Source of the DNA: Thermoanaerobaculia bacterium
Lineage (GTDB): Bacteria > Acidobacteriota > Thermoanaerobaculia > Multivoradales > Multivoraceae
Length of the DNA: 64,000 nt
Reading direction: 5' to 3'
NCBI GenBank assembly: GCA_963664405.1
Contig: OY761158.1
Location: forward strand, 2,624,001-2,688,000
In this document: in pieces, positions 28,992 through 60,307 of the stretch
Layout: every line of letters begins with the position of its first letter
Position numbering within the stretch: position 1 is the stretch's first letter
Program-made: the position numbers and the translations under genes
The notes under the pieces: generated by a model
The model's input: only the letters and a program-made list of their open reading frames with translations
Database searches by the model: none
What the model was told of the DNA's origin: nothing

Positions 28992-29068
28992 TGGTATCCC
29001 CAACGGGATTTGAACCCGTGTTGCCAGCTTGAAAGGCTGGAGTCCTGACCAGGCTAGACGATGGGGAC
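28992..29068 (-). tRNA. tRNA-Glu (TTC)
   Basis: GTCCCCATCGTCTAG...CTTTCAA...GGTTCAAATCCCGTTGGGGATACCA cloverleaf with CCA end. Confidence 0.97.
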
Positions 29069-51418: not shown

Positions 51419-52131
51419 GCGCTCGGCTACCTCTCGCGCGAGGAGATCCAAGCACTCCTCGAAGCCCCCGATCGCTCCACACCGTCTGGACGGCGCGACG
51501 CGGTCCTCTTCGCCGTCCTCTACAACACCGGCGCACGGGTCTCGGAGATCACGGGCCTGCGCGTCTCCGACGTCCTCCTCGATCGCGCCTCCCTCCTACT
51601 GCACGGCAAAGGACGCAAAGAGCGCGTCGTCCCCCTCTGGAAATCCACCGCCAGTCAGCTGCGTGCGTGGCTATCACGCATCGAGCGGAGCCCTGACGCG
51701 CACGTCTTCCCGAATCGCACCGGCAAACGACTGTCGCGCTCCGGTGTCGAACACCGACTACGCGTCGCGGTCTCGACCGCCACGCTGCGATGTCCCTCTC
51801 TCGCCGCCAAACGGGTCTCGCCCCACACCCTGCGACATACCACCGCCATGCACCTGCTCCAGGCCGGGGCCGACATCACCGTCATCGCCCTGTGGCTTGG
51901 CCATGAAAGCACCGACACCACTCATCTCTATATCGAAGCCGATCTCAAGATGAAGCAAGACGCCCTCCAGCGCATCGATGACCCCGCACCCGCGCCGTTG
52001 CGCTTCCAGGCGTCTAATCGACTCCTCGCCTTCCTTGAGGCGCTCTGACTATGCCGAGTACTACTCCTCTCAAACGCCCGCAAATACGCGCTCCACCAGC
52101 TCAACTCCGCATAGTCAGGAACTCGGCATAG
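51419..52131 (+). mobile_element. RIT-type element remnant: 5'-truncated tyrosine recombinase (stop 52048) plus terminal repeats
   Basis: GARVSE, HGKGRKER, HTLRH, LGH, Y; C-terminus LLAFLEAL; 11-bp IR CTATGCCGAGT (52049-52059) and ACTCGGCATAG (52121-52131). Confidence 0.8.
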
Positions 52132-52246
52132 CACCCAGAAAGACGACAAAACCGCTCAGCGAGGACTTATGCAGTTCCAGCTATTGGTGGTCGAGTACCT
52201 AGGCCATTCGGCTTCGGCCTCACAGATCCGTGCTCGAAGATTTCCC

Positions 52247-55200
52247 TCACACGGCTCTTCTCGAAGGTAACCCAAGGCTAGCAAAGAGATCTCCCTGGAC
52301 GGTGGGTAGTCGAGGTCTCGGAAATGGAAATCGGCGCAGGACCTGCTTCTTGTAAGTCTCCCAGTTCAGCGACCGTCGGCTTCGACGACGAAGCCATCGG
52401 TACCAGATCCGGGTCACCTGGTAGTGAAACGAGGCCAAGGCCCGCTGGTTGTTCGGCAAACCGTAGTACCGGTAGTGACCGCGCAGCACGCTGCAGAGCC
52501 AGCGATGCTGCTCGGCCAGGGGCCGATGCATCCGGCGCCGGGCTTCCAGTCGGACCTCCCGCAGTTTCCGCGACAGCCGCTTCGACTGCGTCTTGCGCTT
52601 GCAGACGAATCGCCCATCCCGAGTCCACCCACAGTAGTGCGTGAGGCCCAGGAAGGCGAAGGTCGAGGGGCGACGCTGCCCGAGCCGCTGTCGGCGCAGG
52701 GCTGGAAGCCGACCGAATTCGATCAGCCGCGTCTTCTCCGAGTGGAGCTCCAGGGAAAACTCCCGAAGGCGTTTCTCCAAAGCCACCCGCAGTCTTTCTG
52801 CATCGTCCCGGTACTGAAAGCCCATCACGAGTCGAGTAGGGCGGGGGAATCTCACCCCCACCCCCTCACAGAACCGGACGTGAATGTCTCCACTCATCCG
52901 GCTCTTACCATCCAGCCTTCGCCTGAGACGACATGAAGCGCCAATGCGCAAAGAGATGTGGATCCCGGTCACGGACTTTCCGCACCCACTGATCCGATCT
53001 CCTTCGATGTCTCCGCAGACGTTTGTATTTCGCCCTCGCCCAGCGAGCCAGATGACGATCAAGATGGCAAAGGGACGGATAGAGCGCCGACTTGTAGTAC
53101 CGACCGTAGTAGTTGATCCAGCCCTGGACGATCGGATTGAACATCCGAGCCAGGTCGTCCACTTGCTTGTCGATCCGACAGTCGAGACGCCAGCCCCGAA
53201 TGGTCTGACGCATCGCTTTACCCGCCGCGTTGCTCACGCCGGGACTGAAGTTGACGAAGTACTTACCCCAGCGATTCTTCGATCGCCGAGCACGAAACGT
53301 GTAGCCCAAGAAGTCAAACTTCTCGTTCTCGTACGTCCCCCGTCGGTCGTCATCCTTGCAGTAGACGATCTTCGTCTTGCGCGGATGCAGCTCAAGCCCA
53401 CATGCCGCAAAGCGACCCGCGAGCTCCTGCTTCAGTCTCTGCGCTTGCTCCGCCGTTCGGCAATGGCAGATCGCATCGTCAGCAAACCTCTCGAACGGAA
53501 TGTCCGAGTGGTGACGCGCCATCCACCGGTCGAACGCATAGTGCAAGAAGAGGTTCGCCAGCAGTGGTGAAACCACCGACCCCTGGGGAGTCCCCCTCTC
53601 CCGAGACTCAAGAGTGCCATCCTTCAACTGAACGGGGGCACGGAGCCACCGCCCAATGTAGAGCAGCACCCAACGGCAATCCGTGTGGTAACGCACCGCC
53701 CGCAGCAGAAGATCGTGATCGATCGCGTCGAAAAAACCTTTGACATCGAGATCCAAAACCCAGTCGTAGCGCCAGCATCGCTGCCGCGCCACACCCAACG
53801 CACCAAGCGCTGATTTCCCGGGCCGGTACCCGTAGGAGTCTGGGTGGAAGTGTGTCTCCACCTCGGCCTCCAGGATCCTCTTCACGACCGTTTGCGCGAT
53901 CCGATCCGCCACGGTTGGCACACCCAGGGGACGCGTTCCACCGCCGGGCTTCGGGATCTCTACCCGCTTGACCGGCGGCGGCATGTAGCTCCCTGATGAC
54001 AGCCGATTCCACAGCTTGTACAGATTGTCTCTCAGACGCTCCTCGAAAGCTGCCAACGACTGCCCATCCACGCCTGCCGCGCCTCGGTTTGCCTTTACCC
54101 GCTTGTACGCCTCCCAAACCCACCGCTTGGGAATGCGAAAGGGCTTTGCCTTCGCCAAAGACTCCTCCCGTTGCCGGTTGGCCTCCGGACCCGGCTGGTT
54201 GGTGCCGCGCCTTCGCTCCGGCCCCATTACAGGACCTTCCTCACTACTACGCGCGACTCCGCCCCTGTGCCCCGCATCGGTACTCTCTTCCTCATGGGTC
54301 GACCACTTGGAATTCTCCCTTCGCATCGGGACGACAGGTTCCCACGTTCCACACGAGAGCCTGCATCGAGGTCACGCCGCCTTGCTGCCGGACGCCGCCT
54401 GGGCTGTAGGCAGGTAACACCCAGACTCCTCCCGGAGTAACGACTCCCTCCGGTTTTGACGTCGTCCCTACGCTTTCGACAGGTCATCGACGGTTCGCTT
54501 GCGCTCGTCTCCTCGATCCACACCTGACGGAATCTTGTCCCGCCTTTTCCAGCGACGCTCACCACCCGGGCTCTTGACCCGCGCAGCTCGTGGCGGTTTG
54601 AAGCCTGCACCTGCATGCCGGCTCCGAGGGGCCCACCCTCATCTCTCGTGTAGCAAGGCTGCTCTAGAACACCCAATTACATGAGTACTCCTTTCGCGCC
54701 GTCGTGGCGCACAGTCGTCAGCAAAGCGCACGATGGACACTCGTCCTCGCGCGTGTCGCCTACGCCACTGATGGACCCACAGATCCAGCACGTAGTGCAG
54801 AAAGACGTTCCCCAGCAACGGACTAATGCCCGCCCCCTGGGGCGTTCCCCTCGTCGTCTCTGTCCACTCCTTCTCCTCCACAACGCCGGCCCGTAGCCAC
54901 CCACGGATCAACCGCAGGATCCTCCGGTCGGCGATCCGATGCGCAAGCATCCGAAGCAACCACTCGTGGTCTACCGAGTCGAAAAAGCTCCGTATGTCCG
55001 CGTCCAGTACCCAGTTCACGTTCTGCGACATCACCGCCGTGTGAAACGCCTTCAGAGCATGGTGCGGGCTGCGGCCTGGCCGAAACCCGTACGAGAAGCC
55101 CAGAAAGTCCGCCTCGTACACCGCACTCAGCACCTCGGCCACCGCTCCCTGGACGATCTTGTCCTCCAGAGCCGGCACACCGAGAGGCCTTGATCCACCC

Positions 55201-55565
55201 TCCACCTTCGGTATCCACACCCGCCGTACCGGGCAGGCCCGGTATCGACCTCGATGGATCCGAGAGTGCAGTTCCTCGAGCTTGCGCTCCAGATCCTGCT
55301 CGTACTCTGAGACCGTCACTCCATCCACGCCCGCCGCCGCTTGGCGGCGAAGGCGACGAAATGACCGCTCCAAGGCTTCGGGTGTTACGTGATGCAACAG
55401 CGCCGTAAACCCCGCCCTGCGATCCCTCTTCGCTGCCTTGTTCACCCGAGTGAGACGATGCCTCCAGGCTACCCGGCTCTGCGTCCGGACTTGGGACCTC
55501 TCACCCGGAATCCCTTCGAGCTGGCCGCTTCCCTCCACGCGTCTCGTTTCCTTCGACGGTTTCAT
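52247..55565 (-). CDS. ltrA: Intron A reverse transcriptase/maturase, split by intron B (55565-54713 + 52830-52247)
   Basis: AAGVDG, RPLGVP, GTPQG, RFADD|FVMGF joins in frame (479 codons); no endonuclease domain. Confidence 0.9.
52831..54712 (-). mobile_element. Group II intron B (class D-like) inserted at the FADD codons of the intron A RT
   Basis: 5' GTGCG at 54712; D5 GAGCCGGATGAGTGGAGACATTCACGTCCGGTTC; 3' CTACTCGAC; EBS1 is complementary to the 5' exon. Confidence 0.93.
52905..54326 (-). CDS. ltrA: Intron B reverse transcriptase/maturase (true start probably near 54157)
   Basis: KPFRIPK..EAYKRVKANRGAAGVDG, GTPQG, RFADD, FDFLGYTF, GWINYY. Confidence 0.93.
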   Translation of the reverse strand: MRRENSKWSTHEEESTDAGHRGGVARSSEEGPVMGPERRRGTNQPGPEANRQREESLAKAKPFRIPKRWVWEAYKRVKANRGAAGVDGQSLAAFEERLRDNLYKLWNRLSSGSYMPPPVKRVEIPKPGGGTRPLGVPTVADRIAQTVVKRILEAEVETHFHPDSYGYRPGKSALGALGVARQRCWRYDWVLDLDVKGFFDAIDHDLLLRAVRYHTDCRWVLLYIGRWLRAPVQLKDGTLESRERGTPQGSVVSPLLANLFLHYAFDRWMARHHSDIPFERFADDAICHCRTAEQAQRLKQELAGRFAACGLELHPRKTKIVYCKDDDRRGTYENEKFDFLGYTFRARRSKNRWGKYFVNFSPGVSNAAGKAMRQTIRGWRLDCRIDKQVDDLARMFNPIVQGWINYYGRYYKSALYPSLCHLDRHLARWARAKYKRLRRHRRRSDQWVRKVRDRDPHLFAHWRFMSSQAKAGW

Positions 55566-55569
55566 CAGT

Positions 55570-57602
55570 GTCGGGTCGGAGGAGGCGCCCGCGGTTACCC
55601 GCAGGCTGGCCTCCGTCCGCCGCTCAAACCGGACGTGCAGATTTCCCGCATCCGGCTTTCACGAAGACGCCCCCTTGGGGGAAGAATCGATGGAAGGAAT
55701 CAGACCGACAAGGTTCACCAAGCCCATCTCGCCGTACAGCGTGGCCTTGGGCAGGCTGTCCCACCCTTTACAGCGCCAGCGCTTGTGACGGTGCGACCAG
55801 AGGCGCCGCACCACCCATGGGTCGAGCTGGTGAAAGAGCCGTCGGACGTGGGCACGTTTGTAGTAGTGCCCCCATCCACGCAGGACCGGATTCAGCTGTT
55901 CGATCAGCTGCTCGGTGGTAACCGGTGCCTTCCGCCGCGTCCGACCGCGAATCTGCTGCTTGAAGTGCTGGATCGACTTCTGAGTCGGGTAGGCATACAG
56001 GGCGCCCGAAAGGGCACCGCTGCGGATCTTCGCCCGCGGCAGCCGAAGCTGCTTGCCGAGCTTGATCTTGTACCCGAGAAACTCGAAACCATGCTTCACG
56101 TGCACGATCCGCGTCTTCTGCGGATTGATGGAGACACCGAGCCGCTCCAAGATCCTCGTCGCCACAGCCAAGGCTTTACGAGCCTCAGCCGCGGTCGAAG
56201 AAGTGAGGACCCAGTCGTCGGCATACCGCGTGAGTCGAAACCCTCTGCGTCGCATCTCCTGATCAAAAGGAGTCAGAAGAATGTTGCTCAGCAAGGGCGA
56301 TACGACCCCGCCCTGCGGAGTCCCACGCTCAGTCGGAAACAGGCGACCCTCCGCGAAGCTCCCGGCCTCGAGTACGGAGCGCAAAAGCCTCAGCACCCGA
56401 CCGTCGGAAACCCGTTGGCTCACGAGCATCAACAGCTTCTCGTGGTCCACGCTCCCGAAGAAATCCCTCAGGTCCGCGTCCACGATCCACTCCTTGCCCG
56501 ATTGGATCTCCTTCCAAACCTTGCGCAGAGCCCCGTGTTGGGATCGCCCTCGACGGTATCCGAAGCTGGCAGCATCGAATACCGGCTCGAAGATCGGCTC
56601 CAACCGGTTCAGCATCGCTTGCTGGCAGACACGGTCATAGACCGTGGGGATGCCCAACGTGCGGTACTTCCCCGGCTGGCCCGCCTTCGGGATCCGCTTC
56701 TGCCTCACGGGTTGCGGTCGGTACTCATCACGACACAGCTCCTCGTGAAGTCTGTCGAGGTGCTCAGAGAGCCCCTCGGAGAACTCCTCGATGCTCTGGC
56801 CGTCGATGCCGCCCGCGCCCCGATTGGACTTGACGCGTTCCCAGGCGATCTCCAGGTTCTTGCGCTTGTACACCTTGTCGATCAGAGAGTGAATCTTCCT
56901 CTCTCCCGACGGGTTGATCCAGTCAGCCAGTCTCCTCGGCTGTCGATGTTCGGGTTTTTCACTCATGGAACTATCCAGCCTCGACCGCCTTACTCGCTCG
57001 CCTTCCTTCTCTCCCCTACCGTCTTCGCCGGCCGCCTTCCCCAGCTCACACAGCTGCCGCTCCTCGCGGTCACACGGCTTTCACCGCGCTTGAAGTACTA
57101 CTCGACCGTCCGACTGCTCGCCGCGCATCCCTTCCCACTTCGCTTGCGCTTATAGGGTCCGTTACCGCGGTGCCACCCGCAGACACGACGAGCTCTCCCA
57201 GGGTCACACGCTGATCTTCCGTACCGTGCCGTCCGCAAACACCTTGGTGCGGTGGGTGGATGAAAAATGCCTTCGCCTCCATACTGCAGGCTCGACCTTG
57301 TCCCACCTTTGGCCGACCGGTTCGTCTTCGGGGTGGCCCCCATCGACTACGGCCCGGTACTTCTCCGCAAGCCCTTCGGATCCCACCTCGCGGTGGACAC
57401 CCTGCCCTCCGAAGTCTCACGAGAGCTGGCTCCAGGTCACCCTTGGCTGTTTCCGGGTTTCCCCTTCGTGCCCGTTTAGAGCTCTCCATACCTGTCTCCC
57501 ACTTCGGCCAGCGAGGCATTACCCCCGCTTTTGGATACGACGCCCCTCATCCGAGCGCCGGAGGGACTCAAACCCTCCCGATCAACGCGCTGCCTGGCGC
57601 GC
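55570..57602 (-). mobile_element. Group II intron C inserted into the RNA scaffold of intron A
   Basis: 5' GCGCG at 57602 (or GTGCG at 57604); D5 AAGCCGGATGCGGGAAATCTGCACGTCCGGTTTG; 3' CCCGAC at 55570. Confidence 0.88.
55659..56966 (-). CDS. ltrA: Intron C reverse transcriptase/maturase
   Basis: HSLIDKVY, GAGGIDG, GTPQGG, RYADD, FEFLGY, LRGWGHYY. Confidence 0.94.
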   Translation of the reverse strand: MSEKPEHRQPRRLADWINPSGERKIHSLIDKVYKRKNLEIAWERVKSNRGAGGIDGQSIEEFSEGLSEHLDRLHEELCRDEYRPQPVRQKRIPKAGQPGKYRTLGIPTVYDRVCQQAMLNRLEPIFEPVFDAASFGYRRGRSQHGALRKVWKEIQSGKEWIVDADLRDFFGSVDHEKLLMLVSQRVSDGRVLRLLRSVLEAGSFAEGRLFPTERGTPQGGVVSPLLSNILLTPFDQEMRRRGFRLTRYADDWVLTSSTAAEARKALAVATRILERLGVSINPQKTRIVHVKHGFEFLGYKIKLGKQLRLPRAKIRSGALSGALYAYPTQKSIQHFKQQIRGRTRRKAPVTTEQLIEQLNPVLRGWGHYYKRAHVRRLFHQLDPWVVRRLWSHRHKRWRCKGWDSLPKATLYGEMGLVNLVGLIPSIDSSPKGASS

Positions 57603-58065
57603 ACTATCAGCCAGTCCGACTCCCGACCTCAGCTCAGCGCCGCGCTGTGGTTCTCCCTCGCGCGACGCCCCCGACGGGGACCAGCCCGTCGGACCCGGTC
57701 GGGTCTCCTGGGTTCCGATGACGACCTTTCGTACGTGACACAGGCCACGACCCCGGTGGAGCGACACCGCCTCGCGCTAGCGGCGATGCACATGCTGCCT
57801 TCATGCTCACGAAAACACTCGGCCTCCACGACTTCGCTTTCTTTCGGGGCTGACTCCCTGCACCCTGCACGACTCCTGTCTACGCTTCGAACACGACGTT
57901 ACCGGCGCGCCCGCAAGACTCGGTTCTCACCTGCCCGCTACGGCTTTGGTGAAAGAGGACTTGCACCTCCATGTCATACATCAGCTTTGCCCAGCACACT
58001 CGTGGTCCGCCAGAAACTACGACACACCGGCGGCGTTCCCACGCCCACGCAGCGAGCAAGGCCAG

Positions 58066-58761
58066 CTACGGAGAACCGCCCTTCACTAGGACCAACAGCT
58101 TGTCGTTCTTCCAGCCGCCTGCGAGCTCAGGGTGCTCGGGGAGCACGAAGGCGGCGAAGTCGAGAGCGAGCGGCTCGAGCGCTGCTTCGAAGATCTCCTC
58201 TGGTTGGCTCTCGAACACGTCCTCGACGATCAGCGCCCCGCCGTCTGGGAGGAAGGGGAATATGACGCGCACCTGGTCCTCCGGTTGGTGGGTCGAGTCA
58301 TCGATCACGATGTCGAATCGGCCCTCGGCGGTCCGAAAGGCAGACTCAATGCTCGCAGCACTTCGCACATCGATCGACAGGTAGCGAACACCTGCCAGGC
58401 CGAGCGCTTCGCTTAATGCGATGTGCCTAGCGTTCGCATCGAACCCGATCAGATCTGCGTTGGGGAAGTAGGCGCGGAGCATCTGGATACCAGCACCCGC
58501 TTCGATTCCGATCTCGGCGATGTGGATCCTCTCTAGTCGCCGGGTCGCAAAGAGCAATTCGTATACGGGTGTGTAGGCGTGCCGGTGGGGGGCGGGTTGG
58601 CCCGAGCGCACGAAGGTGTTGAGTACGCTCTTGTCGGTCCCAAACGCACCGCCGAGGCGACAGAGCTCCCCCTCGAAGCCACTGGAATCGATCCTGAGTC
58701 GCGGGATCGTCAAGGATCTCCAGCCCTTACACTCCCGGATAGGCGCGTCGGCTTTGACCAA
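58066..58761 (-). CDS. Class I SAM-dependent methyltransferase (GTDK-type O-methyltransferase-like); start uncertain
   Basis: FGTDK..H.Y..VY..EIGI..GAG..FPNA.LIGFD..FDIVIDDSTH..IVEDV. Confidence 0.75.
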   Translation of the reverse strand: MVKADAPIRECKGWRSLTIPRLRIDSSGFEGELCRLGGAFGTDKSVLNTFVRSGQPAPHRHAYTPVYELLFATRRLERIHIAEIGIEAGAGIQMLRAYFPNADLIGFDANARHIALSEALGLAGVRYLSIDVRSAASIESAFRTAEGRFDIVIDDSTHQPEDQVRVIFPFLPDGGALIVEDVFESQPEEIFEAALEPLALDFAAFVLPEHPELAGGWKNDKLLVLVKGGSP

Positions 58762-60231: not shown

Positions 60232-60307
60232 TGGTAGGCCGTGAGGGGATCGAACCCCCGACCCGCGGATTAAAAGTCCGCCGCTCTACCAACTGAGCTA
60301 ACGGCCC
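60232..60307 (-). tRNA. tRNA-Lys (TTT)
   Basis: GGGCCGTTAGCTCAG...CTTTTAA...GGTTCGATCCCCTCACGGCCTACCA. Confidence 0.97.

Follow-up and report, generated by a model that had tools for sequence, protein, structure and literature searches.

Within a 64,000-nucleotide (nt) stretch of DNA from a Thermoanaerobaculia bacterium (Acidobacteriota; assembly GCA_963664405.1, contig OY761158.1, positions 2,624,001 to 2,688,000; hereafter, the window), our results revealed a nest of group II introns in which one member, termed intron B herein (52831..54712), interrupts the reverse transcriptase (RT) gene of another, intron A, in the codons of its catalytic motif. With high confidence, we interpret B as an endonuclease-less mobile group II intron from a lineage whose guide sequences have evolved to pair with DNA encoding the RT active site, R-[Y/F]-A-D-D. 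As such, it would be a clear example in nature of an RNA-guided mobile element that targets its competitors where the catalytic residues of their enzyme are encoded. A first-pass annotation of the sequence had suggested that B, as a hyperparasite of retroelements, could also invade other RT genes, and this was borne out by a survey of relatives, in which half of those examined, across seven phyla, occupied the same RT codons. Coordinates are those of the window, and all of the intron features described lie on its minus strand.

Intron B has the makeup of a mobile group II intron, including a 5' GUGYG, a bulged A in domain V/VI, and an AY at the 3' end. Its ends were defined by the three copies present in this genome, which are 100% identical over 1882 nt, with GUGCG at the 5' end (54712) and ...CUACUCGAC at the 3' end. 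Rfam matches cover a domain I segment (54522..54640; group-II-D1D4-2, 108.3 bits, E 2e-21) and domains V and VI (D5/D6; 52831..52906; RF00029, 64.7 bits), while domain IV carries an RT/maturase open reading frame (ORF; 52905..54326, 473 amino acids [aa]) with Pfam matches to RVT_1 (1.9e-39) and GIIM (1.4e-16). Only these two families were matched, no HNH or endonuclease (En) domain being found in this protein by Pfam, and both the ribozyme domains and the ORF are intact. The insertion point lies one base after the FADD codons of A's RT gene, where the 5' exon reads ...CGC TTT GCT GAC GAC T and ends at 54713. Once B is removed, the two exons of that gene join in frame (...VRFADD-FVMGFQY...) to encode 478 aa. 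Further, domain I (D1) of A (RF02005) lies upstream of B and its D5/D6 downstream, such that the whole is arranged as a twintron.

The targeting of B depends on two exon-binding sites (EBS), which occur in the intron in the order EBS2 and then EBS1. EBS1 (AGUCGUU; 54445-54439, intron positions 268-274) lies in the loop GGAGUCGUUA of a hairpin (CCGGAG-GGAGUCGUUA-CUCCGG; 54432..54453) and pairs with the first intron-binding site (IBS1; GACGACU, 54713..54719, exon -7..-1). EBS2 (GCGUA; 54469..54473, intron positions 240-244) pairs with IBS2 (54721..54725, exon -13..-9), which reads UUUGC in the window and UAUGC at the sites in copies of intron C, the third intron of the nest. To place these pairings in an evolutionary context, we searched with B's RT, which identified at least 591 relatives, and kept the best 80 (57-73% aa identity). 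Of these loci, 17 could not be examined, and 65 five-prime segments from the remaining 63 had enough flank; after the exclusion of nine rows that lacked GTGYG at the aligned 5' end, the alignment comprised 56 relative rows plus the window, and the following values refer to these 57 introns.

The pairing between guides and exons in B is far beyond chance. The proposed pairs were standard in 87.1% of the cells, compared with 68.2% in shuffled controls, none of which (0/500) reached the observed value, and 34-41% in controls with slid partners. Pairing between EBS1 and IBS1 reached 93.6% of cells, and each of the seven pairs had changed on both of its sides; the stem that presents EBS1 was paired in 97.9%, also with compensatory changes. 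For EBS2 and IBS2, pairing was seen in 75.7% of cells, and five of the six pairs assessed showed compensatory changes. Without prompting, RNAalifold recovered both the IBS2/EBS2 helix and the EBS1 hairpin, with EBS1 in the terminal loop. The guides of relatives that have moved to other targets match their own exons in turn (GGUGGUC with GACCACC, and GGUUGUGGC with GCCACAACC). The first-pass annotation had named these loops as guides set to the Y-A-D-D codons; all of its sequence elements were located where it had placed them, and covariation and the structure prediction agree that they occupy EBS positions. What did not stand was an EBS2 of six bases (AGCGUA; 54474-54469, intron positions 239-244). 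Because the sixth pair, A with exon -8, was formed in only 11 of the 57 cells, we define EBS2 as the 5-mer GCGUA, pairing with -13..-9.

The insertion sites of the relatives point to the same target. In 28 of the 56 relatives, the 5' exon ends one base after [YF]xDD codons, and in another the motif is a degenerate NADD, giving 30 of 57 rows when the window is counted; homologues with the same EBS sequences insert mostly in RT motifs, as the proposed targeting predicted. Among the upstream ORFs of at least 40 aa at these YADD-type sites (window included), 22 of 26 matched RVT_1, with every match ending at profile position 155, and those of L014, L041, and L075 had no family in the Pfam scan. 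The 24 downstream exons comprised 13 with GIIM, one with HNH, four with a weak RVT_1 tail, one with GH94, one with GntR, and four with nothing. The GH94 case (L004, 2610-4500) is instructive, in that a B-like intron lies cleanly within a glycosyl hydrolase gene at CGT TAT GGC GAT GAT T (RYGDD), with GH94 matches flanking it (up to profile position 301 on one side, from 306 on the other). The insertion is apparently ectopic, in a cellular gene that contains a sequence resembling the RT motif, and it shows that the nucleotide sequence, and not RT function, is recognized.

Other relatives have been retargeted. Four (L074, L076, L077, and L078) occupy the K-Y-x-D-H|L-P-L-Y-R site of IS66 transposase genes, all four with IS66 domains and with GGUGGUC as EBS1, and three rows (L002, L003, and L005) occupy a W-[YH]-L-D-E site in a gene without a Pfam match; still other B-like sublineages are found at further targets. 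In an unrooted tree of the ribozyme, built with the exon and EBS columns masked and including several rows from the same metagenome-assembled genome (MAG), YADD-targeting introns were found in all parts of the tree and came from seven phyla, while those targeting IS66 and WxLDE each formed a single derived clade. This distribution is compatible with YADD specificity being ancestral. The survey also showed head-to-tail tandem arrays of B-like introns (L017:3152-6883, the 3' flank of L075, and L048), in which the 5' end of the following copy (GTGYGCCAC) forms the very start of the 3' exon of the preceding one. Separately, one B-like intron (L009:569-4460) is ~3.9 kb long, relative to the usual ~1.87 kb, with ~2 kb extra between the 5' part of the ribozyme and the RT ORF; this is possibly another nested element, in the same place as C in A.

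How a short guide could follow a protein motif is suggested by the bases that it places opposite degenerate codon positions. The guides are conserved across the 30 YADD-type rows (EBS2, GCGUA in 28; EBS1, NGUCGUU in 27), and the exons vary at the wobble positions (-11, C in 17 and T in 13; -5, T in 18 and C in 12; -2, C in 16 and T in 14; -8, all four bases). The guide has a G opposite each of the three synonymous C/T positions, where it pairs with either base, and the third position of the Ala codon, which is fourfold degenerate, is left unpaired between IBS2 and IBS1, so that a single guide fits most of the synonymous spellings of the motif. Where the motif itself differs, as at the YQDD site of L028 (TAT CAG GAT GAT A), EBS2 is changed to match (UGGUA). 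These patterns lead us to a broader proposal, which we hold tentatively and at slightly less than even chances: that the guide reads a protein motif, as opposed to one DNA sequence, and can invade almost any RT gene, that YADD was the ancestral target from which sublineages were later redirected, and that these introns are long-lived hyperparasites. If true, YADD-targeting introns may hold other retroelements in check. More generally, the case shows how a guide of ~12 nt can be tuned to a protein motif that is conserved, even though its codons are degenerate. The literature searched (excluding Dai and Zimmerly 2003, Simon et al. 2008, and supplements) contained no description of the wobble-tolerant design, the spread over many phyla, the GH94 look-alike, or the retargeted sublineages.

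Within the source genome (one contig of 6.78 Mb), the motif T[AT]YGCNGAYGAYN occurs 128 times, of which 23 copies end in T. Seven of these 23 lie in RT genes, according to tblastn, and three of the seven are occupied by B (in A and in two C copies), the four empty ones being in the window's C, in a deleted C copy, and in two other RTs. At the 16 sites outside RT genes, a status that rests on the tblastn list and three spot checks, no B was found, and the difference in occupancy (3/7 vs 0/16) has a one-sided Fisher p of ~0.02 by our own arithmetic. A more permissive scan, allowing wobble pairs and at least 11 of 12 positions pairing, returned 2355 hits and was uninformative, and the strict motif count was used instead. 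Separately, a repeat (...TATGCAGACGACT|CCCCGTGA) that matches B's guide perfectly is unoccupied at C1:4571880 (+), 6507190 (-), and 3046534 (-); at C1:4571880, the frame is open for only 17 codons, and it is therefore not an RT gene.

One potential explanation for the preference for RT genes is that it largely reflects retention, with B inserting at any match of ~12 nt and persisting only in dispensable mobile elements. The GH94 insertion at an RYGDD look-alike would fit this explanation, as would the limitation of site conservation to IBS1 and IBS2 reported in the literature (PMC2504315) and the general occurrence of group II introns in mobile elements. Retention alone would not be expected to keep the guide across seven phyla in exactly the form that complements the RT motif, with G opposite its synonymous positions, and the occupancy contrast between RT and non-RT sites within one genome also argues against it. 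We consider it unlikely as the principal cause, though a contributor worth bearing in mind, given that it would complement, and not replace, the targeting of the RT active site by evolved guides.

The three copies of B allow a second explanation to be weighed, namely, that they arose by duplication and recombination of one ancestral nest and that B is now an inert passenger. The 5' exon is CGCTTTGCTGACGACT for the copy in A's FADD site and CGGTATGCCGACGACT for the two in the YADD site of C copies, and the RTs of A and C share only 33-35% aa identity, such that the insertions in A and C were independent and into different RT lineages. Copy 2 (L084, C1:3046577-3050759) is a chimera: its 5' side consists of an A-type 5' part and C's 5' half, its 3' side is the 3' half of an A-type RT (87.6% nt identity to that in the window), and no A-type D5/D6 was found downstream of it. 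It looks like a deletion through recombination between two B copies (B-in-C and B-in-A) of a window-like nest. That chimera is the product expected from recombination between B copies, and for nested introns of archaea, homologous recombination has been reported to delete copies (PMC4424553). Yet the B copies are 100% identical, whereas their hosts differ by 1-2% (C) or ~12% (A), the ORF and ribozyme domains of B are intact, and its presence at the homologous codon of two unrelated RT genes is impossible by duplication. We therefore regard descent from a single nest as very improbable. The identity of the B copies, alongside hosts that are 97.8-98.9% identical to each other (C) and flanks that are ~88% identical (A-type), instead suggests layered ages, with A oldest, then C, and then B, and with B's insertions being recent and independent.

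That the complementarity is trivial, every group II intron pairing with its 5' exon, and that the YADD reading is a coincidence at the single site that the window alone provides, has a negligible chance of being correct and was already refuted by the two RT lineages hit in this genome, the 29 further relative rows at [YF/N]xDD, and an already described lineage that shares this target.

Based on the pairings, a plausible route for the movement of B can be proposed. EBS2 (GCGUA) pairs with UAYGC at exon -13..-9 and EBS1 (AGUCGUU) with GAYGAYN at -7..-1, and B would thereby reverse-splice into other RT genes at a point one base beyond their second Asp codon, with TAYGCNGAYGAYT as the sequence expected for integration. 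In this scheme, B RNA bound to its own RT would invade single-stranded or transiently open DNA at TAYGCNGAYGAYN. Given that B lacks an endonuclease domain, complementary DNA (cDNA) synthesis would probably be primed from replication-fork strands, as has been proposed previously (PMC2504315). Production of A's RT would have to await the splicing out of B, and probably of C too; B would therefore disable its host intron at the DNA level, and not necessarily at the RNA level. We infer that B is currently mobile. With regard to EBS3/IBS3, the 3' exon differs at +1 among the identical B copies (T and G) and varies in the relatives as well.

Whether B also spares itself is a separate matter. Its own RT codons (TTT GCT GAC GAT G; 53486-53474) pair with the guide everywhere but at -1 (an A-G mismatch), with a G-U pair at -2, and most of the relatives are alike in this respect. 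The first-pass annotation had read this mismatch as self-avoidance; 6 of the 30 occupied YADD-type sites carry G at -1, and the window site is itself FADD, for which reasons self-avoidance by way of FADD or the -1 G was downgraded. Self-avoidance is plausible but weak.

Several observations weigh against homing to the RT active site as the explanation of B. First, the pairing is imperfect: the FADD site in the window has a U-U mismatch at -12 among the five EBS2 pairs, and the -1 pair was formed in only 18 of the 30 YADD-type rows. Second, a majority of the RT-gene sites with the matching 13-mer ending in T stand empty in this genome, only 3/7 being occupied, and copy 2, with its C-type 5' flank and A-type 3' flank, reflects recombination and not a clean homing event. 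Third, the relatives are a sample, being the best 80 of a larger set, with 17 of these loci and nine rows left out. Finally, no transcript shows B splicing or moving. Two RNA-library runs and two other runs were compared with 52100-58050; the RNA contigs contained fragments of B only and no exon-exon joint. An apparent joint linking 54711 with 56212, present in runs X1 and X2 with 22 letters on its shorter side, was rejected as a splice product, as it equals the genomic B-in-C DNA junction of other copies.

The surrounding nest is made up of three sets of group II intron parts (Rfam), with boundaries set by comparing copies within the genome. Outer intron A (52190..57999) spans 5810 nt, including the two inner introns, of which, by arithmetic, 1893 nt are its own; it runs from GUGUG at 57999 to ...CUCGAC at 52190, with Rfam matches to RF02005 (57963-57742, 143 bits) and, for D5/D6, RF00029 (52259-52190, 45 bits). 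In a second A copy, similarity to the window begins at 58008. Exon 1 of A's RT gene (54713..55565) ends in ...R-F-A-D-D plus one nt and matches RVT_1 (E 4.6e-26), the match stopping at profile position 155 of 205. Exon 2 (52247..52830), a read-through ORF, runs from F-V-M-G-F-Q-Y... to the stop codon and is 84% identical, at the aa level, to the sequence that flanks B copy 2 on its 3' side. The nest lies downstream of an ORF ending at 58066 and ~2.2 kb from a tRNA gene at 60235-60307; a second tRNA gene was found by Rfam at 28995-29068, both on the minus strand.

Inner intron C (55570..57604, 2035 nt) lies within A, ending 4 nt before the ATG that opens the RT gene of A, and encodes an RT with RVT_1 and GIIM (56966-55659), followed by D5/D6 (RF00029, 55660-55570); copies elsewhere in the genome share sequence from 57624 onward. 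It is itself nested: in the window and in copy 2, its host is an A-type intron (Rfam D1D4-6), the start codon of the RT lying 4 nt downstream of C. Two further C copies (L085 and L086; C1 ~6396957-6400873 and 2891272-2892598) are in a different host, with an upstream Rfam D1D4-4 match. The insertion sites are alike across copies (GGGAGTCGGA...|ACTGAYGAARCCG), and on the basis of this similarity in different hosts, C also seems to home into other introns. Its RT contains an empty B homing site (56213..56225; TAT GCC GAC GAC T, RYADD plus one nt), which had been put forward as a candidate target: the same 16-mer, CGGTATGCCGACGACT, precedes B at two other genomic C copies, so the site is one that B uses, and it is still empty in the window copy. 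The locus is a ready test system, combining an intact intron in three identical copies, an identical empty site in the adjacent RT of C, and natural site variants (FADD vs YADD, as well as bases that differ at -1 and +1).

The idea that an intron homes to the RT active site is correct but not new, and our finding confirms and extends known biology. Introns that target RYADD were reportedly described by Dai and Zimmerly, with the principle said to be in print in 2003 and again in 2008. In the latter year, Tourasse and Kolstø (PMC2504315) described B.th.I3 in an RT gene, with a target, including IBS1 and IBS2, that is the active site AGGTATGCTGATGACT, or RYADD; B.th.I3, M.a.I5, UA.I3, and P.l.I2 are RYADD-targeting introns of ~1.8 kb that lack an endonuclease and are mutually related. 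A 2018 review restates this targeting for B.th.I3. By target, length, and endonuclease-less RT, B belongs with these introns, the named members of which were compared by description only; a member of the lineage would be expected to share 58-67% nucleotide identity with them over its full length. In both cases, IBS1 and IBS2 are RYADD-type codons (CGCTTTGCTGACGACT and CGGTATGCCGACGACT for B, of the same form as the published AGGTATGCTGATGACT), the intron is ~1.8 kb long (1882 nt in B) with an RT that lacks an endonuclease domain, and insertion into the RT ORFs of other group II introns creates twintrons. Similarly, a Photorhabdus relative (L056, 62% aa identity to B) occupies CGCTACGCGGACGACT in an RT that also carries a maturase domain. 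Unlike the published introns, one identical intron, B, occupies two RT lineages of one genome, with one site being FADD; the survey herein further extends the range to many phyla and brings in a look-alike site outside RT genes as well as sublineages with new targets.

Attempts to connect B more closely to the named introns gave limited returns. A scan for the published B.th.I3 junction recovered three MAG loci and no Bacillus, and a tblastn search against plasmids returned 515 records, with no Bacillus thuringiensis among the best 40 of 515. Domain I of B corresponds to Rfam D1D4-2; the RNA structural class given for the named lineage is "B-like." FADD is noted for group g2, which contains B.th.I3, by Toro and Martínez-Abarca 2013; B's own RT has FADD, and most of its close relatives have YADD. 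A Porphyridium paper and a 2025 Mobile DNA paper were set aside, as YADD appears there only as an RT motif.

The nest as a whole also invites comparison with other systems. Nested introns of Methanosarcina acetivorans, formed by repeated homing and recombinational deletion (Zimmerly and Semper 2015, PMC4424553), resemble the window locus in the repeated site-specific homing of intron into intron, with no host gene in the nest, and their removal or reshuffling by homologous recombination may be compared with the chimeric B copy 2. Those nests are archaeal and stack up to five introns, whereas the one described herein is bacterial, with C and B side by side in A (A[C, B]). In Thermosynechococcus elongatus, identical inner introns within diverged outer ones (TeI3 in TeI4) were taken as recent independent insertions (Mohr et al. 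2010, PMC2882425), a pattern shared by the window locus, and insertion near the start of the outer ORF resembles the position of C, 4 nt upstream of A's ATG. The inner introns there are ORF-less, borrow the outer protein, and insert between two ATGs, in contrast to B, which has its own RT and sits in active-site codons. Finally, the homing site of RmInt1 lies within the insertion sequence ISRm2011-2 (PMC1802570), and four relatives of B are likewise found in IS66 transposase genes at K-Y-x-D-H; for RmInt1, one insertion sequence is targeted, whereas the target of B is a catalytic motif common to a whole enzyme superfamily.

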